Positions 5,673 through 20,168 of a stretch of DNA of 24,991 nucleotides are shown one piece after another (the first letter of the stretch is position 1; every line of letters starts with the position of its first letter). Origin of the DNA: an uncultured Gammaproteobacteria bacterium (GTDB lineage Bacteria; Patescibacteriota; Microgenomatia; CAZETR01; Amesbacteraceae); assembly GCA_964362965.1 (NCBI GenBank), contig CAYIGO010000001.1:1-24991 (forward strand), read 5' to 3'. The notes beneath the pieces were generated by a model. It was not told where the DNA came from. It searched no databases and worked only from the letters and a program-made list of their open reading frames with translations. Made by a program: the position numbers and the translations under genes.

Positions 5673-7472
5673 CTAAATGTAGACTTCCCTTGGGTCAGTG
5701 GTCAGGAGTGGATGTTCTTCGTCCGATGCGACTACTTTGACCGCTACATGGTTCTGGTCGGCTATGAGCAGCGCCTCACCGCGATCACAGGTTAAAAGAT
5801 AATGTTGCTCATAAGCTGAGAGGTGAAATTCTTCGGCCACTTTTTTAATCGTGGTTGTATCTTGGCGCATAAGAACTCTGAGGGATGATTGGCTGGCTAT
5901 AGCTTTGCCGTATTCCTGATTGAGAAAGTCATTAGCTTGCTGGGTAATGATTGTGACGCCTAAGTAATATTTTCTGGCTCGGCGTACTAGACCTGAGATA
6001 AATCGGGCACTCTCTGGCTCTTGTAGGAGCATCCAGCCCTCATCAATCACAAGCATTCGCTTCTGAGGATTCTGTTTAACTTCATTATTAACGAAGTTCG
6101 CAACCACCATCATCATGATTGATCTGATGGACTCGTTTAAGTCTTTGATATCAAAAACAATCAGACGATTATCAAGTTTGATATTCGTTTGGGAATCAAA
6201 AACAGTGGAAAGTGATCCCTTCACAAATCGCTCTAATCTGTCACATAAATCTTTATGCTTCATGGATTTGAGATTTTTGTAGAAATCTTTAAGGAGCGGA
6301 TATTCAACAGCTTTTGACCTTTTTGCATTTTTACGTGGAGTGAGTTTGACTTCTTTATAGGTGAGTAAAAGTGCGCGATCAACCGATGCCCGCTCTTCTG
6401 AGGTGAGTGATCCAACCATCAAGGAAATCAGCTCAGTTAAATCTTGAATATGTTCAGATAAGTTATTTTCTTGGGTGACTGAGTGCTCTGAAAACTGGAA
6501 GGGATTAATTTTCTCTTTGGATGAGCTAGAGAGTTTGATATATGTACCATCAACGCTTTTCGCCAGTTGTTTGTATTCGCGTTCTGGGTCAATAATTATT
6601 ACTTTTGTTCCCTGCATCAGATGTCTGAGAATTTCTACCTTAGCGGTATAGCTTTTACCCGACCCAGACTGGGCAAAAATAATAGAGTTAGCATTGTTTA
6701 AACTAAAGCGGTCGATGATAACGAGCGAGTTGTTTGATTTATTAATGCCATAGAGAATGCCTGATTCCTGTACTAGTTCGGAAGAAACAAATGGGAACGT
6801 GAGCGCTGCACTTGAGCTATCCAAGTTTCTTTTTTGGGCGAGTTTGTTTTCTGATCTAGGAAGAATCGATTGTAACGCTTCAATTTGCTGGAATGTAGCA
6901 GGCTTAATGTAGAACAGTCGTGTTTGCATGACTGTTTCTAAAAGCTTTGTGTTTTTATTGAGTTCAGCTAAGCTATCTGCACTGATTGTCATATAGATTG
7001 AGACTTGAAAAAGTTTTTCCATTCCGCGTTGTATTTTGTCTTTGAGTTCCATAGCCGACTCAAGCGGGTCGGTGATTTCACTCCCAATAACTCTGCCTTC
7101 TTTAAGCATGGTGCGCTTGGTAGACTCAAGTTCAGTTATTTTTCTATTGAGTTTGGGCAGAGCAATGAGCGGATCAACTTGTTCAATGTGATAGCTGATA
7201 TCAATATCATGATTAAAATTGATCAGGTTATTGAGCCACCCAGTTGAGGCAACATAGGGATAGCCTGAAACAAATAGTGTTCTGACGTAGCGGTCATTGA
7301 TCTGCAAGTAACTAGATTCTTCTTTGAGCCCGGCGTAAGAGATCATATCGAGCTGATCTTGCTCACCATAGGCAATATTAATCGACTGATTGGTCAACTT
7401 CTTTTTGAGCTGTTGGCGTTTCCAGTTTTTAATTGGTTTTAGGTTTGATAGTTTTTTTGTTAGGTTAAACAT
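5673..7472 (-). CDS. virB4: VirB4/TrsE-like conjugative ATPase
   Basis: Walker A AQSGSGKS, IIDPEREY, Walker B LVIDEGW, and RRARKY...TQQ. Confidence 0.9.
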   Translation of the reverse strand: MFNLTKKLSNLKPIKNWKRQQLKKKLTNQSINIAYGEQDQLDMISYAGLKEESSYLQINDRYVRTLFVSGYPYVASTGWLNNLINFNHDIDISYHIEQVDPLIALPKLNRKITELESTKRTMLKEGRVIGSEITDPLESAMELKDKIQRGMEKLFQVSIYMTISADSLAELNKNTKLLETVMQTRLFYIKPATFQQIEALQSILPRSENKLAQKRNLDSSSAALTFPFVSSELVQESGILYGINKSNNSLVIIDRFSLNNANSIIFAQSGSGKSYTAKVEILRHLMQGTKVIIIDPEREYKQLAKSVDGTYIKLSSSSKEKINPFQFSEHSVTQENNLSEHIQDLTELISLMVGSLTSEERASVDRALLLTYKEVKLTPRKNAKRSKAVEYPLLKDFYKNLKSMKHKDLCDRLERFVKGSLSTVFDSQTNIKLDNRLIVFDIKDLNESIRSIMMMVVANFVNNEVKQNPQKRMLVIDEGWMLLQEPESARFISGLVRRARKYYLGVTIITQQANDFLNQEYGKAIASQSSLRVLMRQDTTTIKKVAEEFHLSAYEQHYLLTCDRGEALLIADQNHVAVKVVASDEEHPLLTTDPREVYI

Positions 7473-10336: not shown

Positions 10337-12376
10337 CTATTCATACCGCAATGCGTTTAGGGCGGATATTTTTGTTGCTCTGCGTGCCGGATAAATACCG
10401 GTGACCAGTCCAACCAAAAGCGATAAGAAAATAATCACAAAAACAAATGGAAGAGGAATATAGGAAATGTCCACAAAACCCACACCTTTAATAATGGCAA
10501 AAAACGATAAGAAGATGCCAAGAAGCCTCCCTAAAACCCAGCCAAAGATAATCCCCAAGATGCCACCCAAAAATCCCATGATCATTGATTCGGTCAAAAA
10601 CAATTCTGAAACCTCCGAGGATTTCATACCCATCGCTTTCATCAGCCCCACTTCCCGCGTACGCTCCAAAAGCGAAACAGTGAGCGTGTTAAACATGCCA
10701 AGGGCAGCCACAGACAAGGCAACCATGCCTAGTAGCATGAGCACTGTTCGTGCTGTTGCAAACAACGAATTGATTTGCGCCACGGTATCCGCCACCGAAC
10801 GGGTCATATACCCCATGGACTCAATTTGCCGTCTGGTTTTAACGAGTTCATTTTGGTCTTTCACCACCACCTTGGCTTGGGAAAAGTTCGTGATGCCTAA
10901 ACTCCGAAGATCAAGAAACGGCACGTAAAAGAATGGCGTTTTTTCTTCAGGGATCACACCGACAATTGTGTATTCCGCCGAGGATGATTCAATATTGGCT
11001 GACGGATCACTTAACAGATCACCAACCACCACAAATGTGGTCATAAATTTCTTACCAAGCGCTTCGGCTTCTTTAATGCCCAACACCGAGAGCATTGCTC
11101 GATTCACAACTGCCTCACGTTTGGCAGATGTGGAAAGATCCACGGTTTTTGTTTCGGCAGGTTTAATAATGCCGGCCTCCGAGGCAATATCGACCCAATT
11201 CACACCCGCACTTCCTGACGCATCGGAGCTGACGCCTAAGACTTTCGGCTCTGAAATGTTCACTCCTGATAATGTAAGTCCTATCTCTGCAAAATATCCA
11301 GCCTTTTGGATTTGTGTGTTGTCTTCATCACGGGCTACCAGATATTTTCCGCCTTCGCAGTCTCCCTGGGTTGCGGGGTCGCACTTTTCGCTTTTCCACA
11401 GGAGCACCTCTGCCTTCATCCATTTTCCGATCATTTTCCCGTCTTCTGTTTCTCCAAAAGTGCCTATGCCGTCATCTGATTCATATTTCCCTCCCCAAAC
11501 CTCCTCGCCTTGCGGAGACCCTTCCACTCGTTTGGTATACCCAATGATCTTGCCTGTCGTTGACGGATTTTCGCGCACGCGTATCCACGTTCCCGGATCA
11601 ATGATAAAGTCCACATCCTGGATTTTTTCACCTATTACTCCGACTTTTTGTTCCGTCGACACACCAGCTACCTGACCTCTGAGAGAGGAAACATCAAAAG
11701 ATAATTCATTACTCTCAAACACTTTTCCGTCCACCGGCTTGATGGCTGATTGCTTGAGATAATCAGTCGTGACACCATACACCGCCATATCCGTGACAGA
11801 GTTTAAGTAGTTTACTCGTCCGACTACTGCAATGAGTGGCAACGCCATATCTACTGAGGTAATTTCTTTAAAATTTGCCAGTGTTTGATCATTAATTTTT
11901 ACTTTTCCTCCGGGTTGAGGGGAAACATCAGCTTGTTTCATCTCGTCAAGCCGAGCCACCCGAGTAATGACCAGTCGTTCAAAACCGTAGCCCATGGACA
12001 CTAAAAAGACAATCGCGCCAATCCCAATCGTCATGCCACCAACGGTAATAGAGGTCCGTGTTCTTTTGGACTTCATATTGCGTAAGGAAAGCTCGATCAA
12101 CTCGACTCTTGAAATAGACCCCGTTCGTTGCAGATCAAGAAAAAACATGGCACGGGTATACCCACGAGTGGATGCTTTGATCACTTTTTGAAAGAGTCTG
12201 CTTTGGATCAATCTTCGTCCAATACCATGGGTTTTTGTTTCCAAGAGAAACACCATCAAGGCGCAGGCTTTGGCAAAAAGAAAAACCATCAACAGCACCA
12301 CAAATGTCGTCACCTTCCAAAAGTTGGTTTTCAGATCTATAAAAAATTTCTTGATTTTTTCTTTACGTGTTGGCAT
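10337..12376 (-). CDS. MacB/FtsX-family ABC transporter permease with an enlarged extracytoplasmic domain
   Basis: LRNMKSKRTRTSITVGGMTIGIGAIV, SLLERTREVGLMKAMG, and the C-terminal GIYPARRATKISALNALRYE. Confidence 0.92.
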   Translation of the reverse strand: MPTRKEKIKKFFIDLKTNFWKVTTFVVLLMVFLFAKACALMVFLLETKTHGIGRRLIQSRLFQKVIKASTRGYTRAMFFLDLQRTGSISRVELIELSLRNMKSKRTRTSITVGGMTIGIGAIVFLVSMGYGFERLVITRVARLDEMKQADVSPQPGGKVKINDQTLANFKEITSVDMALPLIAVVGRVNYLNSVTDMAVYGVTTDYLKQSAIKPVDGKVFESNELSFDVSSLRGQVAGVSTEQKVGVIGEKIQDVDFIIDPGTWIRVRENPSTTGKIIGYTKRVEGSPQGEEVWGGKYESDDGIGTFGETEDGKMIGKWMKAEVLLWKSEKCDPATQGDCEGGKYLVARDEDNTQIQKAGYFAEIGLTLSGVNISEPKVLGVSSDASGSAGVNWVDIASEAGIIKPAETKTVDLSTSAKREAVVNRAMLSVLGIKEAEALGKKFMTTFVVVGDLLSDPSANIESSSAEYTIVGVIPEEKTPFFYVPFLDLRSLGITNFSQAKVVVKDQNELVKTRRQIESMGYMTRSVADTVAQINSLFATARTVLMLLGMVALSVAALGMFNTLTVSLLERTREVGLMKAMGMKSSEVSELFLTESMIMGFLGGILGIIFGWVLGRLLGIFLSFFAIIKGVGFVDISYIPLPFVFVIIFLSLLVGLVTGIYPARRATKISALNALRYE

Positions 12377-13127
12377 AGGATGGTGTTCCGCTTCCGCGTT
12401 TCCCTTTAATTTCTAACAATAATGATTCTTTATCTTTTTCCCCATATTCTCCGACGATGGTCCCGTTAAACATCTTGACTGCGGTTTTGGCAAAGGTGAG
12501 GTATTCCAAATCGTGCGTGACCATGAGTATTGTTTTTGCCTGGTCTCTGTTGAGCGTAACGAGCAAACGCATCAGTTCCTGTCCCGATTCAAAGTCCAGA
12601 TTTCCGGTGGGTTCATCGGCAATAATGACCTCGGGATTTGTTACGAGGGCCCGGGCCAGGGCGACTTTTTGCTGTTGACCACTTGAGAGTTCGGTAGGCG
12701 CATAATTCGACCATTCACCCATCCCCATGACTTCAAGCATAGTGTGTGCTTTTTCCAAGCTTTCACTCTTTAATCTGCCCATCAACACCAAGGGGAAGGC
12801 TACATTTTCCACCACGGTGAGCGACTTAATCCAGTTGGGCTGCTGGTACACCATCCCCACATGGTTTTTACGAAAATCACTGCGTTGATCTTCATCCATG
12901 CCCGCATACAAATTTTTAGTAAGAAACAGACAGGTTCCTGTACTTGGCGCTTCCAGTCCGAGAATCGTATGCAGGAGCGTTGATTTCCCACATCCTGATG
13001 GGCCAAAGATGACACAAAAATCATTTTGGTTTACTTCAAAAGAGATGTCTTTTAACACCGGCACGTCCTGCTTGCCCACATGGAATGATTTGGAGAGATG
13101 GTCGACTTGAATGATGGCGTTTATCAT
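12363..13127 (-). CDS. ABC transporter ATP-binding protein (MacB/LolD type)
   Basis: GPSGCGKST, LSSGQQQKV, IIADEPTGNLD and VTHD motifs. Confidence 0.95.
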   Translation of the reverse strand: MINAIIQVDHLSKSFHVGKQDVPVLKDISFEVNQNDFCVIFGPSGCGKSTLLHTILGLEAPSTGTCLFLTKNLYAGMDEDQRSDFRKNHVGMVYQQPNWIKSLTVVENVAFPLVLMGRLKSESLEKAHTMLEVMGMGEWSNYAPTELSSGQQQKVALARALVTNPEVIIADEPTGNLDFESGQELMRLLVTLNRDQAKTILMVTHDLEYLTFAKTAVKMFNGTIVGEYGEKDKESLLLEIKGKRGSGTPSYANT

Positions 13128-13131
13128 AGTA

Positions 13132-16100
13132 TTACTTTTTGAAGCCTCCTAAAAATCCAAAGGCTCCTTGTAAATTCATAATGACGAGGTTCAGTGCATT
13201 CTCCGTGGCTTTCGGCGTAATGGTGACGGTATCAATGGAGTTGCCGAGATTTCCTGCTTTGTCTTTAGATAGAGAGCGTAGGTGATACACCTTTGATGGC
13301 GTGAGATTGGAGATAATCACAATGTGGTTAAAGGTTAGGTTGCTGTCCTCTTGGGTCTTTTGGGCATACGTTGTTCCTGTCCCTTCGCCAAACTCGACTT
13401 GCGATGTTCCTGGTTCGTCGGTGTTCCAGGACACAATCAGTTGAGCCGTTTGTTCCTGAGCGGTCTGCGTAACCGCGGGGATATTGCTTCCTTCCACATG
13501 GAGATCCGAAATCTGTGGCGGCCGGGTATCGGTGGCGGTGGTCAGCCGTTGGGAATCAGAAGTGGCTTCGTTGCCCACCTTATCCCTGCCTTTGACGACC
13601 AACATATAGTCCGTTTGGGGTAAAAGGCTCCGCACAATCATCCGATGATCACCTTTAGTTAAAGCCACGTTGACTTCATCCCGAGCGTCACCAGTCTGTC
13701 CTTCGGGGTAGTACGTCACAATGGAAGAGACCTCGGTATTTGTTGTCCAGGTGATGAGAATCGTGGATTGGGCGGTGTTGGCCACCTGTTGAATACGGAC
13801 ATTGGTAATTTTTGGTCGGGGGAGCGTGGTAAAGTCGAGCGTTGTTCCTTCGTACTCCGTGCTATCAGAATCAAAGGTATTGATTTTGTAGTAATACTTC
13901 GTGCCGTCAGATAAACCGGTGAGTTCCGTGGTGTAGGTCGTTTCGGATGTAGAGGTCGACACCTCTTTTGATCCGCCAAACGAGGTGGTGGTGCCGTAAT
14001 AAATTTTGACCTTGCTGGCGTTTGAACTCGTGTATTGAATGGTCGTCGTGGTAAGCCCGATGCTTTTAGCCAGGACGTCCTTGACGGTTGGAGCCGCATT
14101 TGTGGAAAAACTTTTCTCATCAGATGTGCCGGTATTCCCATCTTCATCCGTCCATTTGGTTTTGTAGTAGTAGGTGGTTCCCGGATTCAGTCCCGTCAAC
14201 TGAATCGAGTGCGAGGTGACCTGTGAAGAATTACTGGGTTCCACCGTGTTGTAACTTCCGCTGGTCGTCCCATATTGCACCTTGGAATCACTTGTGCGTG
14301 AAGTTGACCACGTGATGGTTGCCTTTTTGGTCGTGAGGCTTCCCGCACTTGGTCCAGTATCAATCGTTGGGGCTGTTGTCCATTTGCCGGTCGGCGTGAT
14401 GGATACGGCATTGGTTCCCGAACTTTGCGCAGCCGCTCCATCTTTGGTGTACACCTTGTAATAATATTTGGCAGAAGACGGTGTGGTGTCCACATACGAA
14501 AGACCGGTCGTTGTTCCTACTTGAGTAAAGGTGCTGTTATCCGTTGACCGTTTGACGAGATAGGTGAGATTTCCTGCTCCTTGATAGGTGGGTGCGACCC
14601 ACGTGAGAGTGACATTCCATTGCGAGGACGCTTTGATACTACTGTCTGACGCAACCACACTGCCTACATTGTCCGGATCAGTTGAGCTGAGTGTAAAGGT
14701 GCCGGAGATGTAGTTTGACGGTGAATAGTTGGGCGTTGTGGCATTGTCAATTGCCACCACATACACCGTATTGGTCCCTTTGTTCACACCGGGGAGTGCT
14801 GCGGCAGCAACGGTTCGTGTGGTGCTGTTGTCAATATAGGTCGATGCGTTTCCTTGAAGCGTGGCTAACGTGCTTGGCGGCGAGGTATTGATCATGTAGT
14901 AGTAATGCGCCACTGAATTTGATCCTGATGGGGTAGCAGTTGGCCAACTGAGTGCATATGAATTTGCGGTAGACGTTATTGGCGTCACCGTGACGGTATC
15001 CGTTCCGCCAAACGCCGGAGCCGCTCCTCCATACGAAAGGTTGCAGGTTCTTATGGTTCCATCGCTTGAGGTATTTCCTGCCGCATCCACCGTACGGAAA
15101 TAGACCACATTTGTTCCCGAGACGATGGATGAGCCGTCCTGAGATTGCGATAATGTTCTCCCCGTTTCCGAGGAAAGAATGTAGTTGGTCACACCAAGCA
15201 ATGATTCCGTGGTTGTCCCGAGCCATGTTCCCGACGTGGAGTTGATCTGATACTGCCAACCATACAGTCCGGCGTTGGAATCAGTCGATGCGGATAAACC
15301 GGAAGTCGGCCAATTAAAACTCATATCTGCCACGTTGGAAAAACTGCCTGATGCGCAGGAAATATACGTCACGTTGGCCGGTGCAGTGTTATCAAACCGG
15401 AACTGAAACTGAGCCGATGAGCCGGAAAAAATGTTTCCGGAGTTATCAACCGCTTTGATATTGAAATAATACGGAGAGCTGGACGTGGTCAGTGCCGTCC
15501 CGATATATCCGCTGGTTGCCAGATCCACACTGGTAGCCGAGACAATAAACTGGCAGGTGGTACCGGCAGTTGAAACAGGAGAAGTGCCTAGGAGTCCCTT
15601 TGCTGTTGCCGGATTGCCAGCTATGTCTGTTCCCAAATACAGACAGTACCCTTTAAGTCCCGATCCGCCGGCGTTATCTGCTCCAGCCGTCCATGAATAA
15701 TAGGGTGACGATCCCTTCGTCCAGGCATTGGAAGACATACTCGTTCCGCCATTTGAGCGGGTCATGGCAACGGTCGATGCGTTGGTCGTCGGGGCGGTGG
15801 TATCGGTTGTCAGTCCTATAGAAACGTGAGGCAATAAAGGGACATCATTCCCACCAAATGTCAGGATTGCCTTGACCGAGATTCTTTGGGAAGTAATCGG
15901 GAGGGCTTGCATGGCCGACTGGGTAAGTTGAGCTGCCGTGTTCACTGTGGTTGTGGTATCGGTGGCGCTTGCCCACGCGCTTCCGGTCCAGTATTTCCAG
16001 GATGATCCTGACTGGCAAGTTGAGCCGTCATCGGTGCAGAGTTGATACTTGATCGCTGCGTTGCCGGTCGCGGTAGAATCGGTAGTGCAGGTTGATCCGG

Positions 16101-16410
16101 CAAGCGTCCCTTCGCAAAACGTATCCCAGGTGTTGACCTGCGCATTGGAGTAGGCGCTGGTGGTATAGACGCTATAGGTGCCTTGTTTGGAAAGCGTAAA
16201 GTCATCGACCTTGACCGTTTTTCCCGCCTTCACCAATACGCCATACTCGCGAGACGCATTGGCGCCGGTCAGCGTCCCCGACAGTTTCCACCACCCCGAT
16301 CCGGCATCCGTGTAGGTGGTAGCAATCGTTGCGCCATTGTAGTAGAGCTGAGCAATAGAGGAAGTAATAGTCCCGCCGACATTGCCTGTGGTCGTATCGT
16401 AGACATACAC
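13132..16410 (-). CDS. C-terminal part of the DGR target: Thr/Ser-rich fibronectin type III repeat surface protein
   Basis: Repeats such as TITWSTSRTSDSKVQYG...HSIQLTGLNPGTTYYYK. No signal peptide of its own. The frame stays open upstream to 16602. Confidence 0.85.
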   Translation of the reverse strand: MYVYDTTTGNVGGTITSSIAQLYYNGATIATTYTDAGSGWWKLSGTLTGANASREYGVLVKAGKTVKVDDFTLSKQGTYSVYTTSAYSNAQVNTWDTFCEGTLAGSTCTTDSTATGNAAIKYQLCTDDGSTCQSGSSWKYWTGSAWASATDTTTTVNTAAQLTQSAMQALPITSQRISVKAILTFGGNDVPLLPHVSIGLTTDTTAPTTNASTVAMTRSNGGTSMSSNAWTKGSSPYYSWTAGADNAGGSGLKGYCLYLGTDIAGNPATAKGLLGTSPVSTAGTTCQFIVSATSVDLATSGYIGTALTTSSSPYYFNIKAVDNSGNIFSGSSAQFQFRFDNTAPANVTYISCASGSFSNVADMSFNWPTSGLSASTDSNAGLYGWQYQINSTSGTWLGTTTESLLGVTNYILSSETGRTLSQSQDGSSIVSGTNVVYFRTVDAAGNTSSDGTIRTCNLSYGGAAPAFGGTDTVTVTPITSTANSYALSWPTATPSGSNSVAHYYYMINTSPPSTLATLQGNASTYIDNSTTRTVAAAALPGVNKGTNTVYVVAIDNATTPNYSPSNYISGTFTLSSTDPDNVGSVVASDSSIKASSQWNVTLTWVAPTYQGAGNLTYLVKRSTDNSTFTQVGTTTGLSYVDTTPSSAKYYYKVYTKDGAAAQSSGTNAVSITPTGKWTTAPTIDTGPSAGSLTTKKATITWSTSRTSDSKVQYGTTSGSYNTVEPSNSSQVTSHSIQLTGLNPGTTYYYKTKWTDEDGNTGTSDEKSFSTNAAPTVKDVLAKSIGLTTTTIQYTSSNASKVKIYYGTTTSFGGSKEVSTSTSETTYTTELTGLSDGTKYYYKINTFDSDSTEYEGTTLDFTTLPRPKITNVRIQQVANTAQSTILITWTTNTEVSSIVTYYPEGQTGDARDEVNVALTKGDHRMIVRSLLPQTDYMLVVKGRDKVGNEATSDSQRLTTATDTRPPQISDLHVEGSNIPAVTQTAQEQTAQLIVSWNTDEPGTSQVEFGEGTGTTYAQKTQEDSNLTFNHIVIISNLTPSKVYHLRSLSKDKAGNLGNSIDTVTITPKATENALNLVIMNLQGAFGFLGGFKK

Positions 16411-16500
16411 GGAGAAATCATAGGTTGAGGTGTCACCAACATTGACTGACTGGTAGATTTTTCCGTCCGAGATTGAGCCTATAGTAACGGTATCGCCACC

Positions 16501-16515
16501 GGCCGCTGCGCGGCC
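16501..16515 (-). promoter_or_regulatory. DGR target-recognition hairpin downstream of VR/IMH
   Basis: GGCCGC-GCA-GCGGCC (6-bp GC stem, 3-nt loop), about 35 nt after the VR and inside coding sequence. Confidence 0.7.
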
Positions 16516-16555
16516 AGAAGAAGAGGAGAAAGAGTGAGAGATGGCTACGGGATCA

Positions 16556-16668
16556 CTGGCGCAACGAAAGCCAACGTTGCTGTACGTTCCCCGGCGCGAA
16601 AATCAGATACGCTGTGAACGCCCCGGCGTAGGACGTGCTAAACCAATGGCCGCCGCGCTAGAAGGCGT
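16556..16668 (-). repeat. DGR variable repeat (VR)
   Basis: Matches 20054-20168 with 14 substitutions, all opposite TR adenines, plus a 2-nt deletion. Homology continues to 16551 with one C/T difference (IMH versus IMH*). Confidence 0.97.
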
Positions 16669-17797
16669 AGACAGTTGAAGCAGCGGAACCAGAGTTGTGA
16701 TAGATTCTTCCAACACCGTAGGTGGCATCATAGGCAGATGCAAGTGGGCGATAGGCATCGTAGGTCAATGAGCCATATGAAGTAAGTGCAGTAAATTCCC
16801 GCCAAGCAAAACCCGATTGACCACTAACATCGGGTTGGTTTGCTTCGGTAATGGTGTCATTGGTCCATTCCCAAACGTTGCCAGGGATGTCCCAAATGTA
16901 GGCGCCGTTACTCAGTGTGAGAACGCGTTTTTGATTGCCAGCTGTTCCTGAAGTATTGTTCGCAGTATTTGTGGGACAGGAACTGGGGGCTTCGGTGGTA
17001 CCGGCAGTATCGGTGTAGGCGCAGGCATTGTTGCCGGTATCGGTCGTGGAAGCAACCACTGCCAGAGCCGGTGCGTTGTCATTGTGTCCGGCGTAAAGGT
17101 AACCGCTCCCGACTGAACCCAAACTCCAGTTACCGGCTTGGGCTTCGGCGTTTCGTGCAACCGTCATCCATTCATTGTTGGTAATAAGGTGAGTCGCACT
17201 GCCATTGATAGAGACAGTAGAACAGCGGGTGATGGCGTTGGTTTGAGAAACGTTCGCTATTGGATATCCAGAGGCAACCGAGACGACTGCTTTGGAGTTG
17301 GCGCTGGTACAGGCAGTCCCTGAATCGGAATACGTATGATATCCTGAATCAGGAGAGGTAAGTCCTGTTGTCAAGTCAGAGGTGGCTGCACATTTTGCTT
17401 CATATTTCATGGCCAAAAATTCAGTCGTAGAATAGGTGGCATCTGCTGGAACCGCAACCCAACCGGCAGGCGCTACTGCTGCCACACTCCAGGAAGTATT
17501 GTTGCTGGCAAAGGCGGGATTCGTGAGTTTATTGGCAACCGAGTGCGCTCCCGTATCATCAACCGTGACCAGCGTGGAATCGTAGGTGTACGTACCAGCA
17601 TTCGCCGTATTAAATGTCCAGGTTTTAGCGGTGTCATTGAGCGCAAAAATGCTGGTGATGCCTTTGAGCGTCAGATACGAGCCGGCGATGAGCCCGACGG
17701 TGATAAACAGAAGGGCAACAAGATTAAACTGAAACCGCGAAAAATGGAAGCGTGGGGTAAAGAGGTAGGTTTTGAGTTTAATTAATATTTGTCTCAT
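16658..17797 (-). CDS. N-terminal part of the DGR target: TM/signal plus CLec-fold (FGE-sulfatase-like) domain, truncated by TAG in the VR
   Basis: FLAMKYEA, HLITNNEWMTVARN and IWDIPGNVWEW motifs; the RGGxW motif follows immediately after the stop. Confidence 0.9.
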   Translation of the reverse strand: MRQILIKLKTYLFTPRFHFSRFQFNLVALLFITVGLIAGSYLTLKGITSIFALNDTAKTWTFNTANAGTYTYDSTLVTVDDTGAHSVANKLTNPAFASNNTSWSVAAVAPAGWVAVPADATYSTTEFLAMKYEAKCAATSDLTTGLTSPDSGYHTYSDSGTACTSANSKAVVSVASGYPIANVSQTNAITRCSTVSINGSATHLITNNEWMTVARNAEAQAGNWSLGSVGSGYLYAGHNDNAPALAVVASTTDTGNNACAYTDTAGTTEAPSSCPTNTANNTSGTAGNQKRVLTLSNGAYIWDIPGNVWEWTNDTITEANQPDVSGQSGFAWREFTALTSYGSLTYDAYRPLASAYDATYGVGRIYHNSGSAASTVYAF

Positions 17798-18615
17798 GTT
17801 AGTTTCTTTATACTTCCATTATTCAGTAACGACCGCATCTGAACGATAGCAATTTGATTCAGTTGAACTAGACGATCTGATTGGGATATTTTTCTTCTGA
17901 TTAACTCAGCGTTTATACCTTCCAAATTGGCCAAGACAACCAATTGAGTTACGTCAGCGTAATCACGAATATTTCCATCTTTGTTCGAATTTTCGTCACG
18001 CCAATCTTTAGCTGTTTTTCCAAACAGAGCTACATTGAGAACATCTGCTTCGCTGGCATAAACCATGTTGGCTCTATTGCCAGTGACATTTTCAGGAATT
18101 AAGTGTTCTTGAATTGCATCCGCGTGGATCTTGTAGTTAATTTTTGTGAGAGTTCTTTTGACATCCCAGCCAAGCGCCAGTTTTTGACTTTCTTCTTCTT
18201 TTAGTCGTTGGAATTCTTTGATTAAATACAATTTGAATTCAGCAGAGATCCAAGATGCAAACTCAAAGGCGATATCCTTATGGGCATATGTGCCACCAGT
18301 TCTTCCTTTTTTTGAAACCAATCCTATTGCATTGGTGGACTCTGTCCATTTTTTTGGAGTTAAAGAAAAGCTATTTAACCCTGCTTTTTGTCTAAATCCA
18401 TCGAATTCGATGGATTTAAAATCAGGATTATTTATCTTTTCCCAAAGTCCCAAAAATTCTATCGTGTCACGATTACGGAGCCAGTTTTGAATTATATAAT
18501 CACTTCTGTCCTCATCTTTATATCTGGCGATATCAGTCAAAGAGATATAGTCAGATTCCTTTTTAAAAAAAATGACAATTTCTATGCCTTTAACTGTAAT
18601 TTTTGTATTAGTCAT
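17794..18615 (-). CDS. KilA-N domain DNA-binding protein
   Basis: DYISLTDIA...IQNWLRNRDTIEFLGLWE...GGTYAHKDIAFEFASWIS. Its stop overlaps the target start (ATGA). Alternative starts at 18627 and 18630. Confidence 0.85.
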   Translation of the reverse strand: MTNTKITVKGIEIVIFFKKESDYISLTDIARYKDEDRSDYIIQNWLRNRDTIEFLGLWEKINNPDFKSIEFDGFRQKAGLNSFSLTPKKWTESTNAIGLVSKKGRTGGTYAHKDIAFEFASWISAEFKLYLIKEFQRLKEEESQKLALGWDVKRTLTKINYKIHADAIQEHLIPENVTGNRANMVYASEADVLNVALFGKTAKDWRDENSNKDGNIRDYADVTQLVVLANLEGINAELIRRKISQSDRLVQLNQIAIVQMRSLLNNGSIKKLT

Positions 18616-18728
18616 ATTTTTTCTCATCATTCAAAAATGCTCAAACACATACAAACAAAACGGCTGCTATGCAACCCCATACAATCATAATAGTATTTCT
18701 GAAAGAAATTGCAACGTTGCAAACTGCA

Positions 18729-19877
18729 TCACGGTCTCAATAGATGTTTTGTCAATCCGTGGCTATTGGCATGTTTGAAATGACCAATAATCGAGGCCTT
18801 TGTTTCGGCAAGTTTTTTGCTGGTTATCCGGCCATTTTTTACTTGTTTTTCTTTGGAGCGGTAGTTGCGCTCAATCCGGCGAAGCGTGGTACCACGAACC
18901 AGTACATGATCATAAAATGTCCGATACCCAACAAATGGCACTCCAGTTGAAACATTTTTGATGGTGAGTTTTTTAGGATGCAGGCAAAGATGGAGTTTCT
19001 CTTGGAGAAAAGCATCAATTGTCGCACAAAGCTGTTGTAAATACGTACGGTCGTGGTGCAACACAAAAAAGTCGTCCATATACCGCCCATACCAACGTAC
19101 TCTGAGACGGTCTTTAATAAAGTGGTCGAGTTCATTGAGGTAAATATTGGCAAAGAGCTGGCTCGTCAGATTGCCGATTGGTAAACCAGTTCTGTGCTTG
19201 ACCGAAATACTTGCTTTCGCACCATCCGAACTTGAATCAAAAAGAGAGAGCTGTGAGGGAACAAGTCTTTGGGGTGCTGTTAAATGGTGATGCGACGTAA
19301 CGATCGTTTGAATCAGTGCTAATGTTTTTGGGCAGTGAACGGTTTTACCCATAATCCGAAGAAGAATATCCCAGGATACACTTTGGAAGAATTTACGGAT
19401 GTCACACTGAAGAACATAGATTGACGTATTTTTACCATGAAAAGATCGGGCTGCCATGAGGAATTTTTTTAATCGCTTGGCAGCAAGATGTGTGCCTTTG
19501 TCTGTACGACATGCATAGGAGTCGTAAATAAATTGTTTTTCAAACAAGGGCTGGATCACATTGACTAATGCGTGTTGGATAACTCTATCTCGGAAATCCG
19601 GCGCGGCGATACTCCTGGTTTTTGGATCATGAAGCATGAAATAGGTATATGGACGCGGTACATATAGGCCCTGATCCAATTCCCATCGCAAATCAAAGAG
19701 GTTTTCCTCAAGTGAAAACGTGAACGCGCAAATCTTTCGCTTATAGCGATTATCCAGTTGTGCCTGCGTATGCGCGTACAATAAATTTTCTAAATTACAT
19801 AGCTGTGTATACATAAAACGACAAACCCCGCTCTCACAAGCAGGGCTTGTCTTCTTGTACCCCATTTCTGTTTTCAC
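18729..19877 (-). CDS. DGR reverse transcriptase (start uncertain: 19877, 19862 or 19814)
   Basis: FRDRVIQHA, DSYACR..KGTH, QCDIRKFF, GLPIGNLTSQLFAN (the DGR-type SQ motif) and YMDD; no maturase or endonuclease domain. Confidence 0.97.
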   Translation of the reverse strand: MKTEMGYKKTSPACESGVCRFMYTQLCNLENLLYAHTQAQLDNRYKRKICAFTFSLEENLFDLRWELDQGLYVPRPYTYFMLHDPKTRSIAAPDFRDRVIQHALVNVIQPLFEKQFIYDSYACRTDKGTHLAAKRLKKFLMAARSFHGKNTSIYVLQCDIRKFFQSVSWDILLRIMGKTVHCPKTLALIQTIVTSHHHLTAPQRLVPSQLSLFDSSSDGAKASISVKHRTGLPIGNLTSQLFANIYLNELDHFIKDRLRVRWYGRYMDDFFVLHHDRTYLQQLCATIDAFLQEKLHLCLHPKKLTIKNVSTGVPFVGYRTFYDHVLVRGTTLRRIERNYRSKEKQVKNGRITSKKLAETKASIIGHFKHANSHGLTKHLLRP

Positions 19878-20046: not shown

Positions 20047-20053
20047 GAGATCG

Positions 20054-20168
20054 CTGGCGCAACGAAAGCCAATGTTGTTGTTCGTATTCCCCGGCGTGTT
20101 ATTCAGATTCGCTGTGAACGCCCCGGCGTTGGACGTGTTATTCCAATTGCCGCCGCGTTAGAAGGCGT
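20054..20168 (-). ncRNA. DGR template repeat (TR)
   Basis: Non-coding, between avd and RT. In the target frame it has 11 AAY codons (aat tgg aat aac ... aat acg aac aac aac att) and one TAA. Confidence 0.97.

Follow-up and report, generated by a model that had tools for sequence, protein, structure and literature searches.

The question raised by this locus is whether a gene for a very large surface protein, interrupted twice inside its VR, is dead or is held in a broken state written by the retroelement that acts upon it. The window (i.e. the whole stretch of DNA analysed, 24,991 nt in length) contains a complete DGR on the minus strand, comprising Avd, the TR, the reverse transcriptase (RT), a KilA-N gene and the target (Table 1). 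We consider it likely that this is a functional DGR, the single target of which, a membrane-anchored surface protein of ~1,555 aa, has been caught as a null allele of the DGR's own making. This state is probably transient; the damage appears to recur and to be reversible, and not to mark the end of the gene.

Table 1. Positions of the DGR, its target gene and the adjoining genes in the window.
Feature	Position	Strand	Remarks
MacB/FtsX permease	10337..12376	-	next gene after the ABC ATPase
ABC-transporter ATPase	12363..13127	-	start 4 nt past the target stop
Target 3′ fragment, 1,151-codon open frame	13132..16587	-	GFRCA strand, linker, FN3/Pur_ac_phosph_N-like repeats, C-terminal tail
GC hairpin GGCCGC-GCA-GCGGCC	16501..16515	-	centroid structure; ~35 nt beyond the VR end, within coding sequence
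VR, 118 nt	16551..16668	-	codons ~377-415 of the repaired gene
Out-of-frame TGA	16553..16555	-	reached when the TAG alone is read through; 379+1+34 = 414 aa
Lesion 2, 2-nt deletion junction	16587..16588	-	TR GGGGAATACG vs VR GGGGAACG
Lesion 1, TAG stop	16658..16660	-	opposite TR TAA, A>G at the third base
Target 5′ fragment, 379 codons + TAG	16658..17797	-	N-terminal membrane anchor, most of the FGE-sulfatase/CLec domain
KilA-N domain gene, in the slot between RT and target	17794..18630	-	PF04383, E 1.5e-23
DGR reverse transcriptase, 382 aa, intact	18729..19877	-	RVT_1, E 8.8e-23; LPIGNLTSQ and YMDD motifs
TR, 120 nt, 33 adenines	20049..20168	-	translation in the target frame AF*RGGNWNNTSNAGAFTANLNNTPGNTNNNIGFRCAS
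In-frame TAA of the TR	20160-20158	-	nine bases from the TR 5′ end
Avd accessory gene, 113 aa	20200..20541	-	PF22296 bAvd, E 2.4e-22

The open frame of the RT satisfies the motif criterion for the DGR clade (I/LGxxxSQ and YxDD). On the upstream side of the DGR, Pfam identifies a T4SS coupling protein and a Replic_Relax protein, and on the downstream side lies the MacB-type ABC transporter; the order of target, ABC ATPase and permease is conserved in the related genome G036 and at the related loci L012 and L016. The host genome is a 682-kb assembly in 119 contigs, and the runs that hold it are groundwater metagenomes. A search of this whole genome with the TR found only the TR itself and one VR, and no second target. 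The KilA-N gene stops where the target starts, the two codons overlapping as ATGA. The content of this slot varies: the window and G036 have a KilA-N gene there, L014 and L015 have one with an NYN domain, and L012 and L013 have neither (the slot is at L014:4287-4805, L015:1852-2337 and L012:3203-3833). We also note that a premature stop 3.5 kb upstream could exert polar effects on the ABC transporter (the target stop region is at 13127-13134).

A GC hairpin past the VR is the usual target-recognition element of a DGR, and that of the window is inferred to have the same function. The 101-nt stretch at the end of the VR folds no better than shuffled sequences (z -0.37), and it is the short GC hairpin alone that is notable. 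The repeats have an IMH/IMH* asymmetry at their 3′ end, where the VR reads GCCAGTGATCCCGTAGCC and the TR GCCAGCGATCTCTTTCC; again the function is inferred.

That the target of the window is one broken gene, not two, is supported by sequence comparison. The repaired target is defined as a bridge across both breaks (window:13135-16587~16589-16657~16661-17797:-). In this product the FGE-sulfatase/CLec domain (PF03781) spans residues 163-414 (E 2.5e-6, 27.8 bits with a cut-off of 23.3), the CLec fold being assigned by profile only, and Pur_ac_phosph_N/fn3-type repeats (Pfam) follow downstream. The frame of the 3′ ORF supplies the last CLec strand (GFRCA); it begins at this strand, in the middle of the domain, and lacks a signal or anchor of its own. 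The ORF listed within the 3′ fragment is shorter, covering 13132..16410 alone from a GTG (1,092 aa). G036 has an intact orthologue of 1,526 aa that matches the bridged protein over its full length, from residue 1 onwards, with 66% identity, in a locus that is syntenic throughout (ABC ATPase, target, KilA-N, RT, TR, Avd, Replic_Relax and coupling protein). More than 100 single-ORF homologues of ~1,520-1,580 aa were found in a search of 5.8 billion proteins; they come from Patescibacteria, including Dojka-, Woese-, Pace-, Davies-, Roizman- and Moranbacteria.

An alternative genetic code was rejected. TAG, TAA and TGA all end long ORFs in this genome (69, 190 and 121, respectively, of 380), as in the standard code, and no tRNA with a CUA anticodon was found among the 26 tRNAs detected in the MAG, which is 90% complete.

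Both lesions are observed inside the VR, as the earlier note on this DNA had described, and the figures that it gave all proved correct. It had reported that the offset between TR and VR switches from 3500 to 3498 around position 16587, and this is matched by two blocks of direct repeat, 16587-16668 against 20087-20168 (spacing 3500) and 16551-16587 against 20049-20085 (spacing 3498). The 2-nt deletion that it had read by eye (TR aaTAcg, VR aacg) appears in the MAFFT alignment as a VR gap opposite 'AT/TA' of the TR, so that an A-containing dinucleotide is taken out. Its reading of the frames also holds; repair of the TAG alone ends the protein at the TGA at 16555-16553 after 414 aa, while repair of both lesions, for which ~1,555 aa had been claimed, gives a bridged product of 1,555 aa with no further stop or shift. 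It had seen no lesion elsewhere in the target, and there is none in the 4.5 kb outside the VR, where the protein aligns end-to-end with the intact orthologue. The note had further expected that annotation pipelines would call two genes, and the gene callers did so in L014, L015 and L016.

The differences between TR and VR point to the source of the lesions. Fourteen of the 15 substitutions are at TR adenines (33 A in 120 nt), for which the chance of 14 or more is ~2e-7. The fifteenth is a C>T at 16555, at the 3′ IMH edge, and the mutagenised core of the VR differs from the TR at adenine sites only. At the codon of lesion 1 the sister locus L012 has TTA (Leu), and the G036 orthologue has CGC, with CTC in its TR; other relatives have CTN, CAA or ATC. 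Since the TR of the window has TAA where the relatives have CTN, CAA or ATC, the initial T of the TAG came from the TR. Judged from the aligned repeats, the TAG derives by A>G from the in-frame TAA of the template and is not a chance mutation of the VR. The proposal of the earlier note that retrohoming made the lesions is supported by this T, and by the presence of indels at the deletion site in three other haplotypes.

We propose that the RT would copy the TR RNA with misincorporation at adenines, and that the resulting cDNA would replace the VR. The TAA is so close to the 5′ end of the TR that any homing event reaching there would write T-N-N at this codon, which in the window would have become TAG. 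The loss of 2 nt at GGGG|AATACG would most likely be due to a register slip of the RT, with mismatched adenines next to the G run; this slip is inferred. As the VR is internal, either lesion removes the last strands of the CLec domain together with ~1,140 downstream residues. The RT, Avd, TR, IMH side and hairpin are intact, so a new homing event could restore both the frame and a sense codon.

The stop codon in the template is not confined to the window. The same TAA codon is found in the TRs of window/L012, L048, L059, L014/L099, L115, L140 and L153. The VR codons opposite are, as listed, TAG, TTA, TGA, TAG, TGA, TAA, TGT and TTA, i.e. stops in five out of eight. The fraction of adenines changed is 0.48 over 50 TR/VR pairs (with G > T > C), which predicts a stop in 54% of unselected output; the observed share (5/8) matches that of unselected adenine mutagenesis (0.54). 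On the RT tree the TAA state needs at least five changes, and monophyly is rejected (p-AU 5e-64), where the TAA group tested was defined after the TRs had been inspected. The states that neighbour TAA on this tree are CTN and CAA; CAA is one step from TAA, and CTC is three. Stop codons of other kinds are also seen in templates. In L151 (TR ~1466-1610, VR ~6612-6760) a TGA replaces a conserved Trp codon of the TR (RGGN*NN) and is shared by the VR, a second kind of templated stop. The TR of L139 (~725-860) has an in-frame TAG (AGAFA*NL) opposite TTG (Leu) in the VR, i.e. a stop-capable template codon in the ON state.

A wider survey bears on how often such VRs are broken. Whole-protein searches (40 relatives, and 400 genomes of the phylum) mostly matched the FN3 arrays of unrelated 2,000-aa proteins, and found the CLec-VR part only in G036 and G067. 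Pattern-based locus searches of metagenome and genome collections gave 128 related loci, to which contigs for individual proteins were added. Automatic local alignments of TR and VR over-counted non-A differences owing to non-homologous flanks, and the key cases were judged by eye. In 118 loci compared by tblastn using an intact homologue as query, there are 21 stops or shifts in VR codons versus 7 in ~136,000 other covered codons. This is a ~91-fold enrichment in the VR (binomial p 4e-26), although the loci are not independent. L121 and L124 (many lesions everywhere), L089 (hits wrongly chained in the full-length tblastn) and L099 (a duplicate of L014) were left out of this count. The VR is broken in 18 of the 118 loci (about 15%, one in six), and in 15 of the 77 clusters formed by flanks of 97% identity. 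In four clusters with flanks at least 97% identical a broken VR is accompanied by an open one, among them window/L012, L098/L095 and L110/L077+L088. The broken L115/L079 and the intact L140, a further sister pair, have nearly identical TRs but are in separate clusters.

The breaks are of the same two classes as those in the window. A stop at the TAA-templated codon is present in L048, L059, L115 and L079, all with TAA in the TR. L014, also with TAA in the TR, has a TGA stop plus a 1-nt insertion; L016 has an in-frame TAA in the VR, its TR being absent from the contig. Indels are found where the template has no stop at this codon, i.e. a 1-nt deletion at an AAT in L015 (TR codon ATC), and internal indels of the VR in L098, L154, L156 and L159 (TR codon CTC or CTT). 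Four haplotypes have an indel at GGGG|AATACG itself, namely the window (-2), L017 (-1), L089 (+1) and L097 (+1); the L017 contig starts inside the VR. A stop and an indel co-occur in L014 and L115 as they do in the window, and such pairs of lesions are equally compatible with selection having relaxed once a first lesion had knocked the gene out. We note separately that in L126, L127, L130, L131, L133, L135 and L136 a DGR and target of Patescibacteria type lie in MAGs labelled Pseudomonadales, Gammaproteobacteria, Anaerolineae or Limisphaerales. Mis-binning or mis-labelling is the likely reason, and transfer on a conjugative element is conceivable.

The evidence from sequencing runs consists entirely of assembled contigs rather than reads. 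Run X2, which belongs to another groundwater study, gives a contig of 3,865 nt over 14370-18232 that outside the VR has a single SNP relative to the window (T>C at 17992). Its VR carries 12 substitutions relative to the window, all opposite TR adenines, and 2 extra nt at the site of the deletion, where AAT of the TR has become the codon ACT; this allele is thus in frame, with the TAG kept. Compared with the TR, the core of the X2 VR has differences at adenine sites only. L012 (ENA ERZ2470813) shares its TR exactly with the window, and its target gene shows 99% identity. In the VR of L012 the codon is TTA and nothing is deleted, and its differences from the TR include one non-A change. Different VRs in a near-identical background are what ongoing diversification requires, and X2 and L012 provide them. 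Both states of the VR are therefore seen in near-identical strains, in assemblies only, from which neither the direction nor the rate of switching can be read. The reversibility claimed in the earlier note gains support from the in-frame VR of X2 and the TTA without a deletion in L012, together with the intact RT, Avd, IMH-like end and hairpin, although the direction and rate of switching are not shown.

L012 carries a difference of its own at the other end of the gene, with one extra base in the A5T5 run directly after the ATG (ATGAAAAATTTTTAAAC; L012:3840-3870, corresponding to window 17797-17770), i.e. a +1 shift. As a result the gene caller starts the target at Met105 (1,451 aa). The extra base may be a second, start-proximal route to the OFF state, may indicate a rare ATT start, or may be an assembly error. 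X2 also contains a low-depth contig of 213 nt that joins window position 16574 (the 3′ flank of the VR) to 20082 (in the TR), with 9 other letters between; it represents either a VR haplotype with almost no mutations or a chimera of VR and TR created in assembly.

Between the window and L012, the part of the gene past the VR has 16 synonymous changes and 3 non-synonymous ones (dN/dS 0.06), and the corresponding dN/dS with L013 is 0.044. Values this low indicate that purifying selection had been acting until very recently on this part, which is no longer translated.

Could the broken sequence be present in no cell, the stop and the deletion having come from different molecules or from errors of assembly or consensus? 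The MAG is of low coverage (word depth ~5), the contigs of runs X1 and X4 end within the VR or at its borders, a sign of mixed haplotypes, and the contig of L017 also begins inside the VR. Switching of paths between haplotypes of equal length cannot, however, create a 2-nt indel, and the same classes of lesion occur in SPAdes, MEGAHIT, JGI and Logan data from many samples, with the strong enrichment in the VR noted above. For these reasons we regard an artefact as very unlikely. A separate Logan assembly of X4 moreover yields the exact VR of the window with both lesions in one unbranched contig (16547-16858, 312 nt, depth 5.4), although X4 may be the source sample of the window assembly and so may not be independent. 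That the two lesions are linked in cis in single cells is inferred, and rests on this one Logan contig rather than on single reads. We give still less credence to the suggestion that the fragments are two independent genes, with translation of the 3′ ORF initiated separately, or that ribosomes pass through the TAG and then shift frame. The GTG at 16410 does open a long ORF, and gene callers annotate relatives as two genes; but the homologues are single ORFs, and the 3′ frame opens within the CLec domain with neither signal nor anchor. As for recoding, this genome uses TAG as a normal stop, and none of the tRNAs detected is a suppressor. Related loci have TAG, TGA and TAA at the codon of lesion 1, and both the sign and the place of the indel differ between relatives, so that no single recoding signal fits.

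A more serious contender is that the lesions are real and were made by the DGR, but that the gene is being lost, with a dead VR still being rewritten in the absence of any functional cycle between ON and OFF. No allele of the exact window lineage that is open from ATG to stop was seen among the three sampled, since the window has the TAG and the 2-nt deletion, X2 the TAG, and L012 the start-proximal +1; for this reason dead-end decay cannot be excluded. The presence of two lesions in one allele would also be expected of decay, as would the shortened Avd call (69 aa) and the absence of the KilA-N gene in L012, and over half of the candidate DGRs of Wu et al. were discarded as inactivated (PMC5758913). 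A decaying pseudogene should, however, exhibit relaxed selection and lesions spread along its length, and neither is found here. From the dN/dS the region past the VR was translated for most of the divergence of the window from L012, and the 4.5 kb outside the VR is free of lesions. The core of the VR differs from the TR at adenines only, the single non-A difference being at the 3′ IMH edge, and the RT and Avd of the window are intact. On balance we think decay unlikely, and favour a null allele that was written by a working DGR and remains open to rewriting.

Contingency loci such as Neisseria opa and the Haemophilus lic genes give phase variation of surface proteins through slipped-strand mispairing. 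The window resembles these in having a hypermutable tract in a surface-protein gene that may toggle frame or stop, with broken and open alleles co-existing. It differs from them in that the tract is rewritten by templated reverse transcription, not by replication slippage in a simple repeat, and in that the ON states differ among themselves.

The window also has much in common with the canonical DGRs that have CLec targets (BPP-1 Mtd/bAvd/bRT, Treponema TvpA and Legionella LdtA). Avd and a TR are present, as is an RT carrying both the SQ and the YMDD motif; mutations are specific to adenines, AAY codons are frequent in the TR, and the VR encodes the last strands of a CLec/FGE-type domain ending in GFRCA, with an IMH-like end and a GC hairpin beyond. 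Unlike those systems, the VR is internal (codons 377-415 of 1,555, followed by ~1,140 residues), an in-frame TAA is present in the TR, a KilA-N gene lies within the cassette, conjugation genes (T4SS coupling protein and Replic_Relax) adjoin it, and the target is null. DGRs of the CPR/Patescibacteria and of DPANN were reportedly treated by Paul et al. in 2017. As in the CPR/Patescibacteria and DPANN DGRs of Roux et al. 2021 (PMC8144416), the host of the window is a small-genome groundwater member of the Patescibacteria and the target is a large surface protein. The main text of that paper contains none of the terms 'stop codon', 'frameshift', 'nonsense' or 'pseudogen', and null alleles borne by the VR are not treated there.

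In the textbook view AAY codons preclude stops, and templates avoid codons that can become stops (PMC7826257). Such accounts also hold that the bias of the RT minimises truncation, and a related slippage model has come from a reconstituted DGR (PMC12875486). Wu et al. 2018 found length differences between TR and VR in 25 of 372 DGRs, 11 of them frameshifting, which they attributed to slippage of the RT beside AAC; they described the DGRs of CPR as less faithful, and frameshifts were interpreted as extra amino-acid diversity in a C-terminal VR (PMC5758913). The indel of the window adjoins A-rich TR codons as in those cases. In the window, by contrast, three quarters of the protein is lost through the error, near-identical strains differ in it, and it recurs at the hot spot GGGG|AATACG in four haplotypes. 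Frameshifting indels in VRs are thus already known, and what is new is the knock-out of a whole gene through an internal VR, and its recurrence. Within the limited library of literature searched we found no description of VR-borne, reversible, population-polymorphic null alleles of a large target with an internal VR.

Phase variation calls for a hypermutable site in the gene that makes null alleles, and this is met here by the enrichment of breaks in the VR and by the broken and open VRs within clusters. In this Patescibacteria DGR family the element may, in a single step, combine diversification of the binding site with flipping of the whole 1,555-aa surface protein ON or OFF. This reading is based on the in-frame TAA of the TR, kept through long divergence and in at least five places on the RT tree, on the share of stops (5/8), and on the internal position of the VR. 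We put it forward tentatively, as a possibility that at present falls short of being the probable one. An adaptive role for the switch is not proven and no benefit of the OFF state has been shown; that switching is fast enough to matter ecologically is inferred.

DGR targets with premature stops are usually discarded as dead in surveys, and gene callers report such loci as a pair of unrelated proteins. As the break appears to be the output of the retroelement itself and seems to be transient, affecting about 15% of related loci, catalogues are expected to under-count active DGRs and to mis-annotate their targets. With an internal VR the ordinary errors of a DGR, a templated stop or a slip of register, silence a giant surface protein of a bacterium of episymbiotic type. 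If switching is fast, this would be retroelement-driven phase variation combined with antigenic variation, of which no description was found in the literature searched. If the dual role is true, the OFF state would be tolerated or even favoured, for example in shedding a phage receptor or an attachment organelle, and the DGR would be a bet-hedging switch rather than purely a diversifier.
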